In this document: positions 9,830 to 21,877 of the stretch, piece by piece
Numbering within the stretch: position 1 is the stretch's first letter
Layout: the number at the start of each line of letters is the position of its first letter
The notes under the pieces: generated by a model
What the model was told of the DNA's origin: nothing
Database searches by the model: none
The model's input: the letters and a program-made list of their open reading frames with translations, nothing else
Assembly: GCA_046758505.1 (NCBI GenBank)
Contig: JBHIAH010000043.1
Span: 1-21,877, forward strand
Length of the DNA stretch: 21,877 nt
Origin: Candidatus Methylomirabilales bacterium
Lineage (GTDB): Bacteria > Methylomirabilota > Methylomirabilia > Methylomirabilales > CSP1-5
Direction: 5' to 3'
Made by a program: the position numbers and the translations under genes

Positions 9830-10408
9830 TCAGTCCCTATGCAATCGCGGGTGGGGAAAGCGGCACCGGATGGTTTCAACAAAGGTCCGGTCCGCGGAGG
9901 CCGAGAACATCTCCAGCGGCGAGTATCCCCGCTTCCACGCAAGGTAAACGGTGACCACGACCGCTGCAAAGGTAATCACAAAGTTGGGCCAGGCGTTCAA
10001 TTCCCATTGGTCCTGCCACGTCCAGTGCCAACCGTCCGAAAATGGGAGCAGGTAGTGAATGGGCCACGGGTACCCGTCCGGTCCCCGACCGCCGACAAGG
10101 TCTCCCAAGAGATGCAGGTGGAAGCTCACAACCGCAAGGGCGGCCGTCTTCCACCGGCGGGTTGCCACCAGGAAACTCACCCCCGCGACGACGAGGGCAA
10201 ATCCCAGGTTGTGTGCCAGAATATGGTGATACTTTGAGTACCACAAGAGCGGATGGTCCCACCCCCGCGTTAGCTTCTCCGCGATGGCCCCAATGCCGTC
10301 AACATCGGGCGCGACACCCGCCAGTGTCACAGCCGCTCGTTCCTTCCGGCTGAGATCCGCGCTATTGGCAACGAGCCATCCCACGAGAAAGTGGGTCGCG
10401 GGACTCAT
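9830..10408 (-). CDS. Membrane-bound metal-dependent hydrolase (YdjM-like)
   Basis: SD AAGGAG before ATG 10408; MSPATH, APDVD, HHILAH, HLLGD and P-x-x-x-x-x-P motifs. Confidence 0.85.
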   Translation of the reverse strand: MSPATHFLVGWLVANSADLSRKERAAVTLAGVAPDVDGIGAIAEKLTRGWDHPLLWYSKYHHILAHNLGFALVVAGVSFLVATRRWKTAALAVVSFHLHLLGDLVGGRGPDGYPWPIHYLLPFSDGWHWTWQDQWELNAWPNFVITFAAVVVTVYLAWKRGYSPLEMFSASADRTFVETIRCRFPHPRLHRD

Positions 10409-13466: not shown

Positions 13467-13689
13467 TTGACACGGAGCATGCCTGTCGGATACTAAAGAC
13501 AGCACTTCGTGGTGATCGGTCGCGTGCGCAACCGGTAGAGAGGGGGAGTGCAAAGCTCCCCACGGGGCGGAGAGAGATGAAACCGGGGTGACAATAACCC
13601 CCGGCCCACCGCTGGCACAATCGTTGGTGTACTTGAGACCCAGACGCCTTCCGGGCGGAGCACGGCCCGCGAAGGCGTTTTCCTTTTCT
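13467..13689 (+). ncRNA. Candidate small RNA gene with own promoter and terminator (copy A of an unrecognised family)
   Basis: TTGACA-16-GATACT (13467-13494); core 13577-13623 is 36/47 identical, ungapped, to 20141-20095 (minus); terminator-like stem ACGCCTTC/GAAGGCGT (13644-13678) plus T-rich tail; no credible long ORF. Confidence 0.6.
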
Positions 13690-15610: not shown

Positions 15611-15932
15611 CGTCTCTGGACCTCCCCGCTCACCTATCATAGGAAAAATAAGGGCAAATGTTTTTCACACAACTGCCGTGAACGCGGTGGCTACCATGAG
15701 AAACTCGCACTCGAAGATAAATGGTAATTGTCGAGACGCGACCCCGCTCCCCGCTCTTTTCCCACACGCCTGAGGGCCTGCCAGCGCCACCCGGAATGGG
15801 TTGCATGATGGTCTTGACTTCGGCCCCGGGCGCGGCGATACTCACACCTCATGCGCGGGCTTCAGCTTCAGCGCTTCAGAGATGGAGCTGGAAACCCGAT
15901 GGTCCTGTATCGTACCAGTATGGAGCCGAAGA

Positions 15933-16730
15933 ATGAATGAAGGGCGTACGGGTTTTCACGGCGGAATCTGTGATGTGGATGGTGTGCTGGTGGCCTCTCC
16001 ACATGAACGGGCGTGGCGTGAGACCCTCGACCGCCTTTTCGAGACGGAGTGGCGAGGCATTCTCCCTCAAACGACGTATCAGCCAGAACGCTTTACGACC
16101 GCGGTGTATCAGGAGCATGTGGCCGGTAAGCCGCGGTTTAGCGGAGCGGAAGCAGCGTTAATCTACTTTGGCGTACCAGATGCCGCTGAGCGCTCACAAC
16201 GTTACGGCGAGTGCAAGCAAGCGTATTTGATTGAGTTGATTACGGCGGGGCAATTTAGGCCATTTCCCGATGGCCTGCGATTTGTTCTTGCGGTAAAAGA
16301 AATGGGAGTCCGTGTTGCGGCGGCATCATCATCGAAGAATGCCCATCTGTTCTTGGAACGAATACCACTCGATGTATTTTCTCAATCAGAGGGGAAGAGG
16401 TATCGCGTCGTCTTTCCCGGGATGACCTTGCTCGAGCTGTTTGATGCGAATGTCTGTGGGCGCTTTGAGCGAGGTAAGCCGCATCCAGAGATCTTTGTAA
16501 ACGCAGCCAATGATTTGGGCCTATCCCCCGGAGTCTGCTTTGTTGTCGAAGATGCGACGTCGGGAATCCAAGCAGCAAGGGCAGGGGGGATGGCTGCCCT
16601 GGGGGTCGCTCGACTGGATGATGAAGCCCTGCTCAGCGAGGCGGGTGCCGACCTCGTCGTGAGTTCACTCGACGACGTCGCGCTGGAGCCATTGACCCGT
16701 GGCCGGCTCGAGCGGCGACCAAAGACATAA
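15933..16730 (+). CDS. Beta-phosphoglucomutase-like HAD hydrolase
   Basis: SD GGAG before ATG 15933; HAD motifs DVDGVL, ASSSKNA, GKPHPEIF, VEDATSGIQAA; adjacent to a GH65 gene. Confidence 0.88.
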   Translation: MNEGRTGFHGGICDVDGVLVASPHERAWRETLDRLFETEWRGILPQTTYQPERFTTAVYQEHVAGKPRFSGAEAALIYFGVPDAAERSQRYGECKQAYLIELITAGQFRPFPDGLRFVLAVKEMGVRVAAASSSKNAHLFLERIPLDVFSQSEGKRYRVVFPGMTLLELFDANVCGRFERGKPHPEIFVNAANDLGLSPGVCFVVEDATSGIQAARAGGMAALGVARLDDEALLSEAGADLVVSSLDDVALEPLTRGRLERRPKT

Positions 16731-16733
16731 GCA

Positions 16734-18983
16734 ATGATTGGGAATCGAGTGACAGGGGATATCTTTCGAGTCGAGAACGATCCGCGGTGGCTTGTGACAA
16801 TTGAGGGCTGGACTCCGAAACATGAGCCTGCGGTCGAGTCGCTCTGCGCCCTCGTGAACGGGTATTGTGGCGTACGAGCGGCTGTGGAGGAAGGGAGCAG
16901 CGTCTCAAACCCGGCGACGTTTTTGAATGGCGTGTTTGACGCGGCCCACGACATGGTCGCTCAGTCTGCTGCAACACCGGAGCATCAGGTGATCGCCGCA
17001 CCCACGCCGGAGCTTGTCAAAGGCCCAGATTGGTCGCGCATCCGCGTCATGCTCGAAGGGGTCCCGTTGCAGGTCGTCGAGGATCACTTGCTGCACCACA
17101 AGCGGATCCTCGATATGCGTCGTGGTGTCCTTGTCCGCGAGTGGCGGGTACGTCACGGGACACGCACAACGTCTCTCCGTTCACTGCGCTTCGCTTCCCT
17201 GGACGATCGCCATCTGTTAGGACAGGTTCTTGAGATCACGCCGGAGGACTGGTCGGGGCAGATTGTGCTTGAAATGCTCGTTGAAGACGATGTGACAAAC
17301 GAGGGAGGGGTACGTCATTTGATCGGCCTGCAAACGCATCGAGACTCAGATCGACTACTGTTAACGGCTGTCACATCAGAAAAGGGTATTGCGATCTGTC
17401 TGGGGGCGTGGGCTCGGCTGACGACTGGACATGGAACCCAAATGGATGGTGTCCAGGAATGTACACAACAGGCTCTCATCCATCGCTGGGTCTTTCAGGC
17501 AGAACGTGGCCAATCGTATACCTGTCACAAACTATGCGCACTCTTTACTTCCCGTGATTCCCCAAAGCCCGCAGAGCGAGTGTCCAAAGAATTAGATAGA
17601 GCCGTCGTACAGGGATTCCCTGCAATACTCACAGCGAGTACCCGATCGTGGGGTCTCCGTTGGGCAAGCACTGATATTCGCATTGATGGAGATGACATCA
17701 TCCAGCACCAGACGCGGTTTGCGCTCTACCATCTGATTGGGTGTGCCAATCCCGCCGATGAGTATGCATCCCCAGGTGCTCGTTCATTGACGGGTGAACG
17801 GTATAAAGGGCACGTTTTTTGGGACACGGAAATCTTTGTTCTTCCCTTTTTCATTTTCACTCACCCGCCCACGGCGAGGGCACTGTTGATGTATCGCTAC
17901 CACACCTTGCCCGCCGCGCGGAATAAGGCTCACTCACTTGGTTATCGGGGCGCGTTGTATGCATGGGAATCGACTGATACCGGGGTAGACGTGACGCCGT
18001 CGTTCGTGATCAATGCGGCAGGCGAGCGGCTTGAGATTCTCACGGGCTTGCAGGAACACCATATTTCGGCCGATATCGGCTACGCCATCTGGCAGTATTG
18101 GAAAGCGACAGACGATACCGCGTTTTTTGTCCACGCTGGAGCCGAGATGCTGTGTGAAATTGCCCGCTTTTGGGCGAGTCGCGTCGTGCAGCGCGAAGAT
18201 GGTTGTTTTCATATCGAGGCGGCAATCGGGCCGGATGAGTATCATGAGACAGTCACAGATAATGCGTATACAAACTGCATGGCGCGCTGGGTATTGCGAC
18301 GCGCGGTGGATGCGGCCGGATGGCTGCGAATCCATCACGCCGAGCAATGGGTCGCATTATCGGAGAAGATTGGATTGGCGGATGAAGAGATTGACAGGTG
18401 GTCACACGTGGCGGAGAAGCTGGTTGATAATTGTGACCCCCACACCGGTCTCTTCGAGCAGTACCGCGGGTACTTTGATTTGGTACCAGTCGATTTAGGG
18501 GATTATGAGCCACGCGAGCAGACGATGGACGTGATATTGGGTTGGCAAGAGCTGGTCAGAACCCAGATTATCAAACAGGCGGATGTGGTGATGCTGCTCG
18601 TGTTGTTAGGACATCACTATTCCCGCAGCGTCTGGGAAGCAAACTATCGATTCTATGAACCGCGCACGTCGCATGACAGTTCATTGAGTGCGAGTATGCA
18701 CGCATTGATGGCGGCCCGACTGGGGGACCTCAACGATGCGGAGCGCTATTTTCGAAAAGCGGCTAGCATCGATTTAGATTTTGAGCACGGCGTGACGGCG
18801 GCAGGAGGAGTGCACATCGCCGCGTTGGGCGGTATGTGGCAAGCACTGGTGTTTGGATTTGGGGGCCTAATGGTGACCGATCAGGGGCCAACATTTGCGC
18901 CGCACGTACCAAAGGGGTGGGGTCCTCTGCGCATACCACTGCGATGGCGGGGGGAACAGCTTTACCACGACGTACATGCATAA
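16734..18983 (+). CDS. Glycoside hydrolase family 65 (alpha-glucoside phosphorylase; kojibiose/maltose/trehalose type)
   Basis: NGYCGVRA, YKGHVFWDTE, GALYAWES, HISADI, GPDEYH (catalytic Glu), KQAD, HDSSLS, GFGG. Substrate cannot be assigned by eye. Confidence 0.93.
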   Translation: MIGNRVTGDIFRVENDPRWLVTIEGWTPKHEPAVESLCALVNGYCGVRAAVEEGSSVSNPATFLNGVFDAAHDMVAQSAATPEHQVIAAPTPELVKGPDWSRIRVMLEGVPLQVVEDHLLHHKRILDMRRGVLVREWRVRHGTRTTSLRSLRFASLDDRHLLGQVLEITPEDWSGQIVLEMLVEDDVTNEGGVRHLIGLQTHRDSDRLLLTAVTSEKGIAICLGAWARLTTGHGTQMDGVQECTQQALIHRWVFQAERGQSYTCHKLCALFTSRDSPKPAERVSKELDRAVVQGFPAILTASTRSWGLRWASTDIRIDGDDIIQHQTRFALYHLIGCANPADEYASPGARSLTGERYKGHVFWDTEIFVLPFFIFTHPPTARALLMYRYHTLPAARNKAHSLGYRGALYAWESTDTGVDVTPSFVINAAGERLEILTGLQEHHISADIGYAIWQYWKATDDTAFFVHAGAEMLCEIARFWASRVVQREDGCFHIEAAIGPDEYHETVTDNAYTNCMARWVLRRAVDAAGWLRIHHAEQWVALSEKIGLADEEIDRWSHVAEKLVDNCDPHTGLFEQYRGYFDLVPVDLGDYEPREQTMDVILGWQELVRTQIIKQADVVMLLVLLGHHYSRSVWEANYRFYEPRTSHDSSLSASMHALMAARLGDLNDAERYFRKAASIDLDFEHGVTAAGGVHIAALGGMWQALVFGFGGLMVTDQGPTFAPHVPKGWGPLRIPLRWRGEQLYHDVHA

Positions 18984-19259
18984 GGATACGTACAGTAAGC
19001 GTGGGAGTCAGGCGGAACTTGCCCCGGTTTGACGGACACACCGAAAGGGGACACCATCCCCAAGGGGGTGTTGTACGTCTGAAACAGTGGGATGTTCCCT
19101 CTTCTGTCCGTCGATTATCTTGGTCCGCATAAAAGCCCAGACCCACTCTTGCGGGTAGGACATCCCCCACCTCTTGTCAGTGTGCGGTTAATGGTGCCAG
19201 CGGGAGACGAAGGGGGATGCCTCCGCCACTTCCATGGCTGCCCGGTTTTCCGAAGCAGG

Positions 19260-19379
19260 CTACCGGGGGTCAGTGAAGAGGCCTTCACGGAGCATCGGCC
19301 TCAGGATCACCATGGCAATGAGGATGGCAGTTGCCGGCACCAACAGTGGAAGCATGCTCGCCAATCGGCTCACCTTCAT
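19260..19379 (-). CDS. 39-aa single-pass membrane peptide
   Basis: SD AAGGAGG; MKVSRLASMLPLLVPATAILIAMVILRPMLREGLFTDPR*; upstream TTGACA-18-GATACT at 19480-19451. Not in the ORF track. Confidence 0.6.
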   Translation of the reverse strand: MKVSRLASMLPLLVPATAILIAMVILRPMLREGLFTDPR

Positions 19380-19565
19380 CATTCCCTCCTTTTCGGTTGT
19401 TCTGGAGTATGGCTAGCCTGATGCATGCCTGCCACGCCTCCGAGGGTTCAAGTATCCCCCCACGGTGGAAGGGGTGTCAAGTGCGCCGAATAGGTCACGG
19501 TGGATGCTGACCTGCGTATCCTTTCCCGCCTCCACTCTTTCACGTATAGCAGAAGAAAACACTCC

Positions 19566-19594
19566 TTGACAGGAAAAGGGGGACGTGTTATTGT
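19566..19594 (+). promoter_or_regulatory. Sigma70 promoter of cold-shock gene
   Basis: TTGACA-17-TATTGT with an extended -10 TG. Confidence 0.7.
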
Positions 19595-19753
19595 CCATCC
19601 AGCTTTCGTGATCGGCTTGTTGTGGAAACGAGAACCGCAAGGGCTTCATGGAGAGCCCGTGCGGTTTTTTTATGCCGTCGGGTCTCGTCGCGACGAGACC
19701 TCACCCCCGGGCAGTCCCCGGGGATCCTCAACAGAAAGGAGGGAGACAGGAAC

Positions 19754-19957
19754 ATGCGATACAGTGGCACCGTAAAGTGGTTCAACGACGCCAAGGGCTA
19801 CGGATTCATCGAGCGACCAGATGGTCCCGATGTATTTGTGCACTATTCGTCGATCCAAGGCGGTGGATTCAAGACGCTGTCCGAGGGGCAGTCGCTTGAG
19901 TTCGATGTCGTGGAAGGACCGAAGGGCGAGCAGGCGGCCAACGTCACCAAGCGATAG
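19754..19957 (+). CDS. cspA: Cold-shock protein, CspA family
   Basis: [15 protein letters not shown] (RNP1), DVFVHYS (RNP2), GFKTL, GPKG-x-QAANV; purine-rich SD region. The paralog letter is not determinable. Confidence 0.95.
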
Positions 19958-19980
19958 GTGGTCGAATGCAGCTCTGGGCA

Positions 19981-20019
19981 GAAAGGGCCTCGAGATTCCC
20001 GGGGCCCTTTCGCTTTTTT
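19981..20019 (+). terminator. Rho-independent terminator after csp, possibly bidirectional
   Basis: GAAAGGGCCTCG...CGGGGCCCTTTC followed by GCTTTTTT. Confidence 0.8.
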
Positions 20020-20195
20020 CGTCGGCTTGGCTGCGGGATCACCGGTGCGGCTTTGGGATCCGAGAGGTCGTCTAATAAGTAGTTGGTGCGCCGCCGATTG
20101 TGCCGGAGGTGGGCTCGGTGTTATGCCTACCCCGGGTCCATCCCTAACTCCTGTGGAGAGGGCCTAAGTATGCCCTCCCGGCCCAGGGCTGTCAA
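20020..20195 (-). ncRNA. Candidate small RNA gene (copy B)
   Basis: Minus strand TTGACA-17-CATACT (20195-20167), then AGGAG-N6-ATG GAC CCG GGG TAG and the shared hairpin core 20135-20103. The 3' end is assumed to be the csp terminator. Confidence 0.55.
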
Positions 20196-20248
20196 GCGCG
20201 GGCAGGTCAAGTCGGGTGCGGAGGAGGTGCATGGCCGATGGTCCGGTC

Positions 20249-20274
20249 AGATAATTGTACTTATCCCCATTTTC
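20249..20274. repeat. 26-bp exact direct repeat, dif-like site (copy 1)
   Basis: AGATAATTGTACTTATCCCCATTTTC, identical to 21262-21287; ATAA-N6-TTAT core. Confidence 0.85.
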
Positions 20275-20286
20275 ATTTTCATCGGG

Positions 20287-20886
20287 CTATGGTGCACAGC
20301 GAGACTGCTGCCGGACGTGGTGGATCCGAACGAGATACAGCAAGGCCCCGAGGTCGTAGCCGGCGTGCACGAAGATGGCGGGCAGCAGGTTGTCAGAGAC
20401 CATCAGCAGCCCACCGAGGTACAGGCCCAAAAGGGCTGCGATGGCCGCATAGGCCTCTGTGAGAAGATGCGCCAGCCCGAACAGGGCGCTGGCAAGGAGG
20501 AGGGCGACGAACGGGCCCAGCCAATCGGCCAGGGCGATCTGGATGACGCCCCGGAAGAGGATCTCCTCTCCCAGGCCCGCCGCGACCGCAACGAGGGTCA
20601 GCTCGAAATACGAGCACTCGGCAAAGACGGGGACGATCGTCTCAAACACCTCGTGCTGCAGGCGGCGCAAAGGCCCCCAGGACGATCGGGCGCACCACCA
20701 CATCCCCAGAAGCGGCGGCCAGATGGCGCCTATCCCCAGGACAACGGCTTGCCACCCCAGGGAGATGCGAGCAAACGGCGGATGTCCCGCCCACCAGCCC
20801 AGGCCCAGCGCCAGCCCAAGCAGGCCGCCCTCGAAGAGAACTGTTATCCACACAATCCGGCCAGAGACGGCGCGCGAGCCACTCAC
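20287..20886 (-). CDS. CPBP (Abi/CAAX, type II) intramembrane glutamic endopeptidase
   Basis: GEEILFRG, FGLAH, HAGYD motifs; several TMs; GTG 20886 follows GGGAGG. Confidence 0.9.
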   Translation of the reverse strand: MSGSRAVSGRIVWITVLFEGGLLGLALGLGWWAGHPPFARISLGWQAVVLGIGAIWPPLLGMWWCARSSWGPLRRLQHEVFETIVPVFAECSYFELTLVAVAAGLGEEILFRGVIQIALADWLGPFVALLLASALFGLAHLLTEAYAAIAALLGLYLGGLLMVSDNLLPAIFVHAGYDLGALLYLVRIHHVRQQSRCAP

Positions 20887-20910
20887 CCCCCCTCCCACTC
20901 TGCTGGGTCT

Positions 20911-21004
20911 TTGACAGCCTTCCCTCGCTGAACGATACCCAGGCCCCTTGGTAGGAGCAAGGGGGAGCCGGGGAAGGCATAGTCGATCGTCCTCCCCCGG
21001 TACA
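20911..21004 (+). ncRNA. Candidate small RNA gene (copy E, lacks the mini-ORF start)
   Basis: TTGACA-17-GATACC, then AGGCCC...AGGAG...CCGGGGAAGGCATA...CCCCGGTACA; 25/37 identical to copy B over hairpin + YACA. 3' end not defined. Confidence 0.45.
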
Positions 21005-21221
21005 CGGAGAAGAAAACGGGGAGAGCGCCGAATTTGTGACCAAACCGAAGCAGCAAAGATTGAGATTGGGATCAAGTCACTTGTCGGCCAAACTTCCCTC
21101 CTTCTCGATCCTACAGGTAAACGGGTGGGTGGCACGACATGACGCTCGTGGCCCTGTACCCCGTCTGCCGCTTAGCTCATACAAACGCATTTCATCTTGT
21201 GACAATCGAGCAATAGAGGGG

Positions 21222-21247
21222 GGAAAAGGGGACATTCAACTTTTTCG
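21222..21247. repeat. Degenerate inverted copy of the dif-like site
   Basis: GGAAAAGGGGACATTCAACTTTTTCG aligns 15/26 with the reverse complement of the 26-mer, with matches concentrated in the arms. Confidence 0.5.
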
Positions 21248-21261
21248 GGGGGTGGTGGCGG

Positions 21262-21287
21262 AGATAATTGTACTTATCCCCATTTTC
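21262..21287. repeat. 26-bp exact direct repeat, dif-like site (copy 2)
   Basis: Identical to 20249-20274. Confidence 0.85.
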
Positions 21288-21290
21288 CCT

Positions 21291-21785
21291 ATCCAGCTTC
21301 GCCAAGCCGTTCAAACAGCCTCCCTGCCCGACGCCTGGGCAGAGAAGATGCTCGGGAAGATCGAGGAATGGAAAAAGACTGAAGCCCAGGCGGCGGGCGC
21401 TGCCGCTCAACCGCTCAAAGACAGGCTCGCCGCGCTGGAGGCGAAGCTCGGCCGACTCCTCGACGGCTACCTGGACGGCGTCATCGCACGCGAGGAATAC
21501 GCGGGGCAGAAGGAAAAACTCCTATCGCAGAAGTCGGCCGTCACGGCGCGGCTTGGCCAGATTGAGCGGCAGGGGAATCACTGGCTCGAACCCTTGACAC
21601 AGTTCGTGTCAAGGGCTAACCAGGCCCATTCGGTGGCGGTCGGGGGAAATCTGGACTCGCTCAAGGAGTGGACGAGCCGGATTGGCTCGAACCACAGGCT
21701 GGCGGGCCGAACCGTGCGACTGGCATACGAAAACCCCTGGCGCCTCGTGGCCGCCAGGGGCAAAAATGACACTTGGTGGAGCTGA
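21291..21785 (+). pseudogene. C-terminal fragment of a large serine recombinase-like integrase
   Basis: Coiled coil LAALEAKLGRLLDGYLDGVIAREEY...K..L, then WLEP, GSN and PW, typical of large serine recombinase C-termini. Catalytic, recombinase and N-terminal zinc-ribbon parts are absent. The last codons overlap the tRNA 3' end. Confidence 0.65.
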
Positions 21786-21849
21786 CGGGATTCGAACCCG
21801 TGACCTCGTGACTGCCAGTCACGCGCGCTCCCAACTGCGCCACAGCCCC
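21774..21849 (-). tRNA. tRNA-Ala (anticodon GGC)
   Basis: 76 nt GGGGCTGTGGCGCAGTTGGGAGCGCGCGTGACTGGCAGTCACGAGGTCACGGGTTCGAATCCCGTCAGCTCCACCA; G3-U70 alanine determinant, TTCGA T-loop, encoded CCA. Confidence 0.98.
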
Positions 21850-21877
21850 AAAAAAGGAAGGAGAGCTGAGAGGCACC

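Follow-up and report, generated by a model that had tools for sequence, protein, structure and literature searches.

What are the short, oriented repeats that surround a membrane protease gene near the end of this contig, and which enzyme would act on them? The window analysed here is the entire 21,877-nt contig C43 of a Methylomirabilota source genome (G000), the assembly of which comprises 149 contigs. Positions 20249-20274 and 21262-21287 carry identical 26-mers offset by 1013 bp, and an inverted, diverged copy at 21222-21247 ends 14 bp short of the second 26-mer. Between the two direct copies, on the minus strand, lies a gene for a CPBP/Rce1-like intramembrane protease (20287..20886; PF02517, E = 8e-18), which probably starts at the GTG codon at 20886; a tRNA-Ala(GGC) gene is found next door (21774..21849, minus strand). 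The repeats, the CPBP gene and the adjacent tRNA had all been correctly described in a first-pass annotation, which interpreted the arrangement as a set of dif-like sites. The genome-wide site search that it called for, performed with a matrix built from 26-mer-type sites, recovers 45 sites in the genome compared with none in a locally shuffled genome. By whole-genome count, the exact 26-mer occurs twice in the 2.99 Mb, at 20249 and 21262, and nowhere else; allowing up to 3 mismatches gives 6 copies, and up to 6 mismatches 13.

The source genome contains 12 Y1 transposase genes (PF01797), and all 12 proteins retain the HUH motif and the catalytic Tyr. In each of these genes, an inverted repeat (at least 16/18 positions) links the upstream region to the stop codon; the sequence of the repeat is specific to the gene. 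The repeat of the gene on contig C31 (10149-10835), which is located between sites at 10130 and 10872 in inverted orientation, is the window 26-mer; its downstream copy overlaps the stop codon, with the TAA embedded in the A-rich inner end. In intact elements, the A-rich (inner) end of such a terminal inverted repeat (TIR) faces the gene, and the CCCC end is directed outwards. The expectation that the window holds dispersed, oriented sites of a DNA-rearranging enzyme encoded elsewhere thus proved correct, although the enzyme is a Y1/HUH protein. From these sequence matches, the three window repeats are almost certainly solo TIRs of TIRYT-type Y1/HUH transposase genes.

TIR1 (20249..20274, plus strand; CCCC core ending at 20268) is a solo type-A TIR of the C31-type transposase and shares its first 20 nt, without a mismatch, with the TIR upstream of the C31 gene. 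TIR3 (21262..21287, plus strand; core ending at 21281) is a solo type-A TIR with the same sequence as TIR1. Because a copy matching this 26-mer at 25 of 26 bases is present on contig C9, the identity of the pair requires no local copying. TIR2 (21222..21247, minus strand; matrix score 32) is a solo type-B TIR, back to back with TIR3. Its core is present in 6 genomic copies, compared with none for the reversed control, and none of the 12 Y1 genes of the assembly carries an exact TIR2-type TIR. The segment 21222-21287, previously viewed as an empty module, is better read as a TIR dimer with no gene inside. A probable degenerate TIR of the C25-type family (21066..21090, minus strand) was recognized through its similarity, weak by blastn (70%, E = 0.02), to a site of C25 type on contig C50. 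Across G000, a strict search with 13 cores identified 75 TIR sites, versus none for reversed controls, and the solo copies occur as singles, dimers and groups. TIRs of different families also adjoin each other outer-to-outer, back to back or in tandem (C11:20342-20420, C125:293-349, C14:2852-2909, C9:21362-21427), as if TIR ends attracted other TIRs.

The C31 protein is short (228 aa) and carries HWH and the Tyr, with YxxxNG instead of the class-2 YxxxNP, and its score of 66 falls below the NCBIfam RAYT cut-off of 80. Pfam HTH domains were not matched in the C31 and C14 Y1 proteins, and the single long Y1 protein scanned (313 aa) gave weak HTH_23 and HTH_28 matches. A PDB sequence search with the C31 protein returned no meaningful match. 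The short Y1 proteins of 228-231 aa (L005, L008 and L012) all have a terminal GRP motif, absent from the nine longer ones, and TIRs with T-rich outer tails; we take the GRP motif of the C31 protein to be AT-hook-like.

The Y1 genes of G000 are divergent, the closest pair standing at 57%. The association between Y1 genes and TIRs was also found in other genomes. We collected 79 related loci, 5 of which were dropped for short flanks; an inverted repeat of at least 18/20 is present in 56 of the 74 evaluable loci and in none of the 74 controls. Type-A TIRs accompany 36 of the 48 loci at 56% protein identity or above, versus 1 of the 31 below this value. On a quick protein tree (75 rows, with 7 of the 79 loci excluded for lack of a typed TIR), the TIR type changes 3 times, compared with 25 times for shuffled labels, with several phyla spanned; since kin share labels, this match represents clustering rather than co-evolution. 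The exact type-A pattern was found in 4 of 251 genomes of the phylum, all four belonging to the source genus. A metagenome scan with 20 nt of the site produced one match, which looks unrelated, and viral scans produced none for the TIR site. Two unpublished genomes (G007 and G021) contribute only to tallies and to the pooled breakpoint loci described below, and no claim depends on them.

The polarity of intact elements has a direct consequence for the CPBP gene. The outer ends of TIR1 and TIR2 both point at it, and the gene is therefore flanking host DNA rather than cargo. Homologues with 82-85% DNA identity are present in G009, G012 and G006 as well as on contig C2 of G000, and DNA homology to them starts at about 20270-20283, the outer end of TIR1. 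None of the four intact homologues is bracketed by type A or B sites; in one, a TIR belonging to a different family lies about 170 nt away from the 3' end. Judged by the geometry of intact elements, the CPBP gene is external to the TIR pair, which speaks against a CPBP module. The first-pass annotation had further suggested that the direct repeats could release a circle of about 1013 bp. The repeats are indeed identical, direct and 1013 bp apart, but neither an excision joint nor a circle was detected in contigs from four runs of one study, in which rare variants are dropped. Similarly, no empty allele of the locus was found among homologous loci or run contigs. One joint connecting 20104 to 21187 was set aside: it is weak, seen in a single contig with a 21-nt side, and links two other repeats.

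The outer ends of the TIRs often carry duplications. Exact tandem duplications over the outer end are present at 37 of 129 gene-anchored TIRs. The corresponding counts are 1 of 129 for inner ends, 15 of 2456 for random places and 5 of 363 for places matched for CCCCT. The outer boundaries of all 37 duplications are located 5-12 nt beyond the CCCC core, whereas the inner boundaries vary from -1 to -28; for the 16 units of at least 14 nt, the boundary clustering is significant under a simple uniform null (p about 1e-4). Among the 75 sites of G000, duplications affect 15 outer ends versus 1 inner end, with boundaries 5-13 nt out. TIR1 is one of these 15, with a 6-nt tandem duplication at 20269-20280.

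Neighbouring genes and repeats are cut at TIR outer ends as well. Next to TIR3, a large serine recombinase gene is represented by its C-terminal 163 codons (21294..21785, plus strand; 85% identical to residues 318-480 of P0001), with the truncation 12 nt beyond the CCCC of TIR3. Two longer copies in G248 match the window at the DNA level from exactly 21294 onwards. A search of the assembly did not recover the missing N-terminal portion, and viral scans gave no matches to the remaining piece. The left 42 bp of a MITE-like genome repeat (21176..21217, plus strand) match other copies up to 10 nt beyond the CCCC of TIR2, and the copies on contigs C68, C30, C50 and C42 run on past this breakpoint. 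In G006, the CPBP copy is truncated 8-9 nt past a duplicated TIR. Comparison of G009 and G012, which are about 95% identical, revealed three differences at TIR outer ends, at +3 to +7: a TIR common to both genomes with outer flanks diverging after 3 nt; an indel of 6 bp at +7; and, at +5, the exchange of about 850 bp for a TIR that is accompanied by about 150 bp of its inner flank. In a pooled count, homology of the outer flank sets in 0-14 nt out for 11 of 123 anchors, compared with 21 of 709 controls; the 11 are not independent and include two discovery anchors and three duplicated pairs. On the inner side, homology ends 15-60 nt beyond the TIR at none of the 123 anchors.

We propose, with a probability of roughly two in three, that these duplications and junctions result from cutting by the transposase. 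A TIRYT transposase would bind the TIR and nick a single strand at a distance of about 5-12 nt outside the CCCC core; the nicked end would be rejoined elsewhere by HUH strand transfer. Rejoining nearby would generate a short tandem duplication, and rejoining at a distance would lead to deletion of adjacent DNA or to movement of the TIR together with DNA on its inner side. Such a mechanism would explain the cut serine recombinase gene and the cut MITE-like repeat. Precedent comes from TnpA-REP of E. coli, which nicks through a 5'-phosphotyrosine, performs strand transfer in vitro and has been proposed to amplify its own repeats (PMC3333891). Several observations nevertheless weigh against the mechanism. 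The excess of pooled breakpoints is modest (11/123 versus 21/709) and not independent. Integron-integrase fragments mostly lack TIRs at their breaks: of 31 integron-integrase-like loci, 2 have a TIR core before the truncation, on C23 (19 nt) and C86 (81 nt), both outside the 5-12-nt zone. No empty allele was found, nor was the cognate gene of TIR2 in the assembly, and the C31 protein has YxxxNG rather than YxxxNP, with a score under the NCBIfam RAYT cut-off. Finally, the TIRs do not fold beyond shuffled sequences (z from -0.1 to 1.0), which makes recognition by a single-strand enzyme hard to explain.

The same data could be read as passive debris, with TIRs left by old insertions of whole elements, duplications arising through replication slippage at C/T tracts and truncations caused by host deletion in an unstable island. 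We consider this explanation unlikely, but well worth keeping in mind, given that the island is full of other debris, that breakpoints, counted without bias, are enriched only about threefold and are not independent, and that no activity is visible in the run contigs. It sits poorly with the duplications, whose frequency falls about 20-fold at CCCCT-matched places and almost to nothing at inner ends, and with the outer boundary being capped at 12-13 nt while the inner one varies. It is much less probable that the repeats are operators bound by the TIRYT protein or a host factor, with a regulatory role for solo copies. Upstream TIRs often abut TTGAC, a -35-like word, before the transposase gene, so that autoregulation at that gene is plausible; however, the second TIR either overlaps the stop codon or comes after it, TIR1 in the window is situated past the CPBP stop, the gene that follows TIR3 lacks its 5' part, and the one-sided duplications and cut genes would be left unaccounted for. 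That the identical pair is an assembly duplication is scarcely credible: the window comprises one entire contig out of 149, and Logan contigs end at repeats in the vicinity, but 26 bp is far below the read length, the flanks differ, TIR1 is spanned without differences by contigs from four runs of one study (one run possibly from the source sample), and the 25/26 copy exists on C9. Among the contig pieces listed, none spans TIR3.

The original interpretation, namely, dif-like 11-6-11 sites recombined by a tyrosine recombinase, with one CPBP module and one empty module, is largely refuted and now appears highly improbable. The ATAA-N6-TTAT layout on which it was founded holds for both direct copies, which favours the model, but is missing from the inverted copy and found in only 7 of the 45 sites. 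The conservation profile does not fit an 11-6-11 build: across the 45 sites, information content stays at or below 0.2 bits over the five outer positions of the left arm, whereas the supposed 6-bp spacer at the centre is conserved at 0.9-2.0 bits (the centre columns being part of the search matrix). None of the 79 TIR-gene loci has a tyrosine recombinase within up to 3 kb, contrary to the suggestion that a different tyrosine recombinase acts here; the site belongs, as a TIR, to a Y1/HUH transposase gene. The genome contains four PF00589 matches, which correspond to two full tyrosine recombinases and two integron-integrase fragments, with no full integron integrase, and the location of both fragments less than 100 nt from a TIR speaks for the model. 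The lack of bracketing in the four intact CPBP homologues and of skip or circle joints in the run contigs speaks against it, as do the strain differences, which fall outside the site and not in its centre. TIR ends of the TIRYT type can evidently pass for dif sites. The two C-terminal integron-integrase fragments, L003 (C23:32077-32421) and L004 (C86:10711-10887), are each positioned just behind a TIR. A general integron link was dropped: of the 31 loci, only these two G000 fragments fit, and two other core matches are not at truncations. As for the dif site of the host, a single-copy dif-like 28-mer (C127:977-1004, L273) on a 3.6-kb contig shares 15 of 28 bases with TIR1. Among 65 relatives, it has only chance-like matches and hence is unconfirmed as the host dif; a thirteenth Y1 gene, which is partial, lies about 470 bp away.

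The tRNA-Ala gene is the likely anchor of an accessory island in which the lone TIR and the back-to-back TIR dimer are embedded amid debris of mobile elements. The MITE-like repeat is about 130 bp long with inverted ends, occurs at least 5 times in G000 and once in G010, and shows high depth in the runs (L139, L140, L142, L150). An IS-end-like repeat at 19007-19052 has copies on contigs C14, C19, C20, C21 and C120, and the C21 copy is truncated at a duplicated TIR outer end. Another element, present at 20061-20157 (minus strand) and 13565-13651 (plus strand), has about 46 genomic copies of roughly 100-170 nt with promoter-like boxes, a conserved core and a terminator-like hairpin; a conserved ATG-NNN-CCN-GGN-stop motif is found in 22 of the 46, and in 32 of the 46 the next ORF is on the same strand. 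It has no Rfam match and is a candidate leader RNA or riboswitch not listed there; it may resemble c-di-GMP-II, a likeness to which Rfam lends no support. An Rfam scan of 18900-21877 detected the tRNA and a weak cspA leader, and nothing else. A cold-shock gene with its leader (19600-20020; L144, L145) is multi-copy in the genus, often near tRNA-Ala, with at least 4 close copies in G000 and 3 within 7 kb in G005; in G006 it adjoins CPBP in a different arrangement. Further upstream (15801-18983), a HAD hydrolase gene is located beside a GH65 glycoside phosphorylase/hydrolase gene, a pair kept in G006 at 86%.

Extending the cutting mechanism, we speculate that TIRYTs perform one-ended gene shuffling, in which a solo TIR would be a live cut site that moves with its inner DNA while genes on the outer side are trimmed and rejoined, so that about a dozen enzyme-TIR pairs per genome would remodel islands. 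We regard this broader scenario as improbable. Were it true, accessory islands would be built and remodelled as by integrons, but through HUH chemistry acting on hairpin-less repeats.

The closest known counterparts are the TIRtrons and their TIRYT proteins (Di Nocera, De Gregorio, Rocco 2013, PMC3733652), with RAYT-like Y1 genes placed between TIRs that are unrelated to REPs and overlap the gene ends. As in TIRtrons, solo TIRs form singles, dimers or groups, and several gene-TIR types coexist per genome. The TIRs studied here read GGGGATAA and GGGGACAT rather than following the GGGGWSAS consensus, with type A deviating at 2 positions and type B at 1; this motif characterizes the majority of the described TIRs, not all of them (PMC3733652). 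The accessible text of that paper makes no mention, for TIRtrons, of duplications at outer ends, of a fixed zone for boundaries or of neighbours that are truncated, and gives no test of TIRYT binding or cleavage. Openly accessible publications on TIRtrons and TIRYTs yielded neither a substrate or cut site nor a biochemical assay for the class. No outer-end duplications were found in the accessible literature on HUH/Y1, TnpA-REP and RAYT group 1 proteins, including PMC5581495 and bioRxiv 2024.07.17.603846.

TIRYTs are also discussed by Quentin et al. 2018 (PMC6006769), where, according to the accessible portions, subclass 2.1 TnpA-Y1 occurs in 14.9% of strains and all 20 TIRYT examples of this subclass possess a C-terminal HTH domain. 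Our proteins resemble subclass 2.1, or RAYT group 1 (PMC6006769; Bertels et al. 2017, PMC5581495), in being class-2 Y1 enzymes without REP hairpins, encoded by several divergent genes per genome; the HTH_23/HTH_28 matches of the 313-aa protein are weak. The C31 protein differs in its short length (228 aa), the GRP end and YxxxNG, and gave no Pfam HTH match.

The E. coli REPtron with TnpA-REP and BIMEs (Ton-Hoang et al., PMC3333891) similarly pairs an HUH enzyme with repeats, cleavage and strand transfer being features described for E. coli. REPs, as presented there, are GTAG-tagged single-strand hairpins cleaved at CT over more than 400 nt, whereas the TIRs examined here do not fold and leave footprints 5-13 nt from one end. 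Acinetobacter dif sites are described as 28 bp long, an 11-bp arm lying on either side of a centre that varies (Mindlin et al. 2019, PMC6449649). The window shares with pdif modules a gene between inversely oriented short sites and, in two of the three sites, the ATAA-N6-TTAT layout; it differs in having no 28-bp 11-6-11 build, a conserved centre, no linked tyrosine recombinase and a gene that is unbracketed in homologues. Although the class itself was already known, the clue to its cut site provided by outer-end duplications is new. Taken with the junctions, the one-sided duplications lead to the prediction of a nick 5-12 nt outside the CCCC, for which the C31 gene and the 26-mer form the pair. 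TIRYT-like proteins make up a large group, hence the value of such a concrete cut-site prediction.
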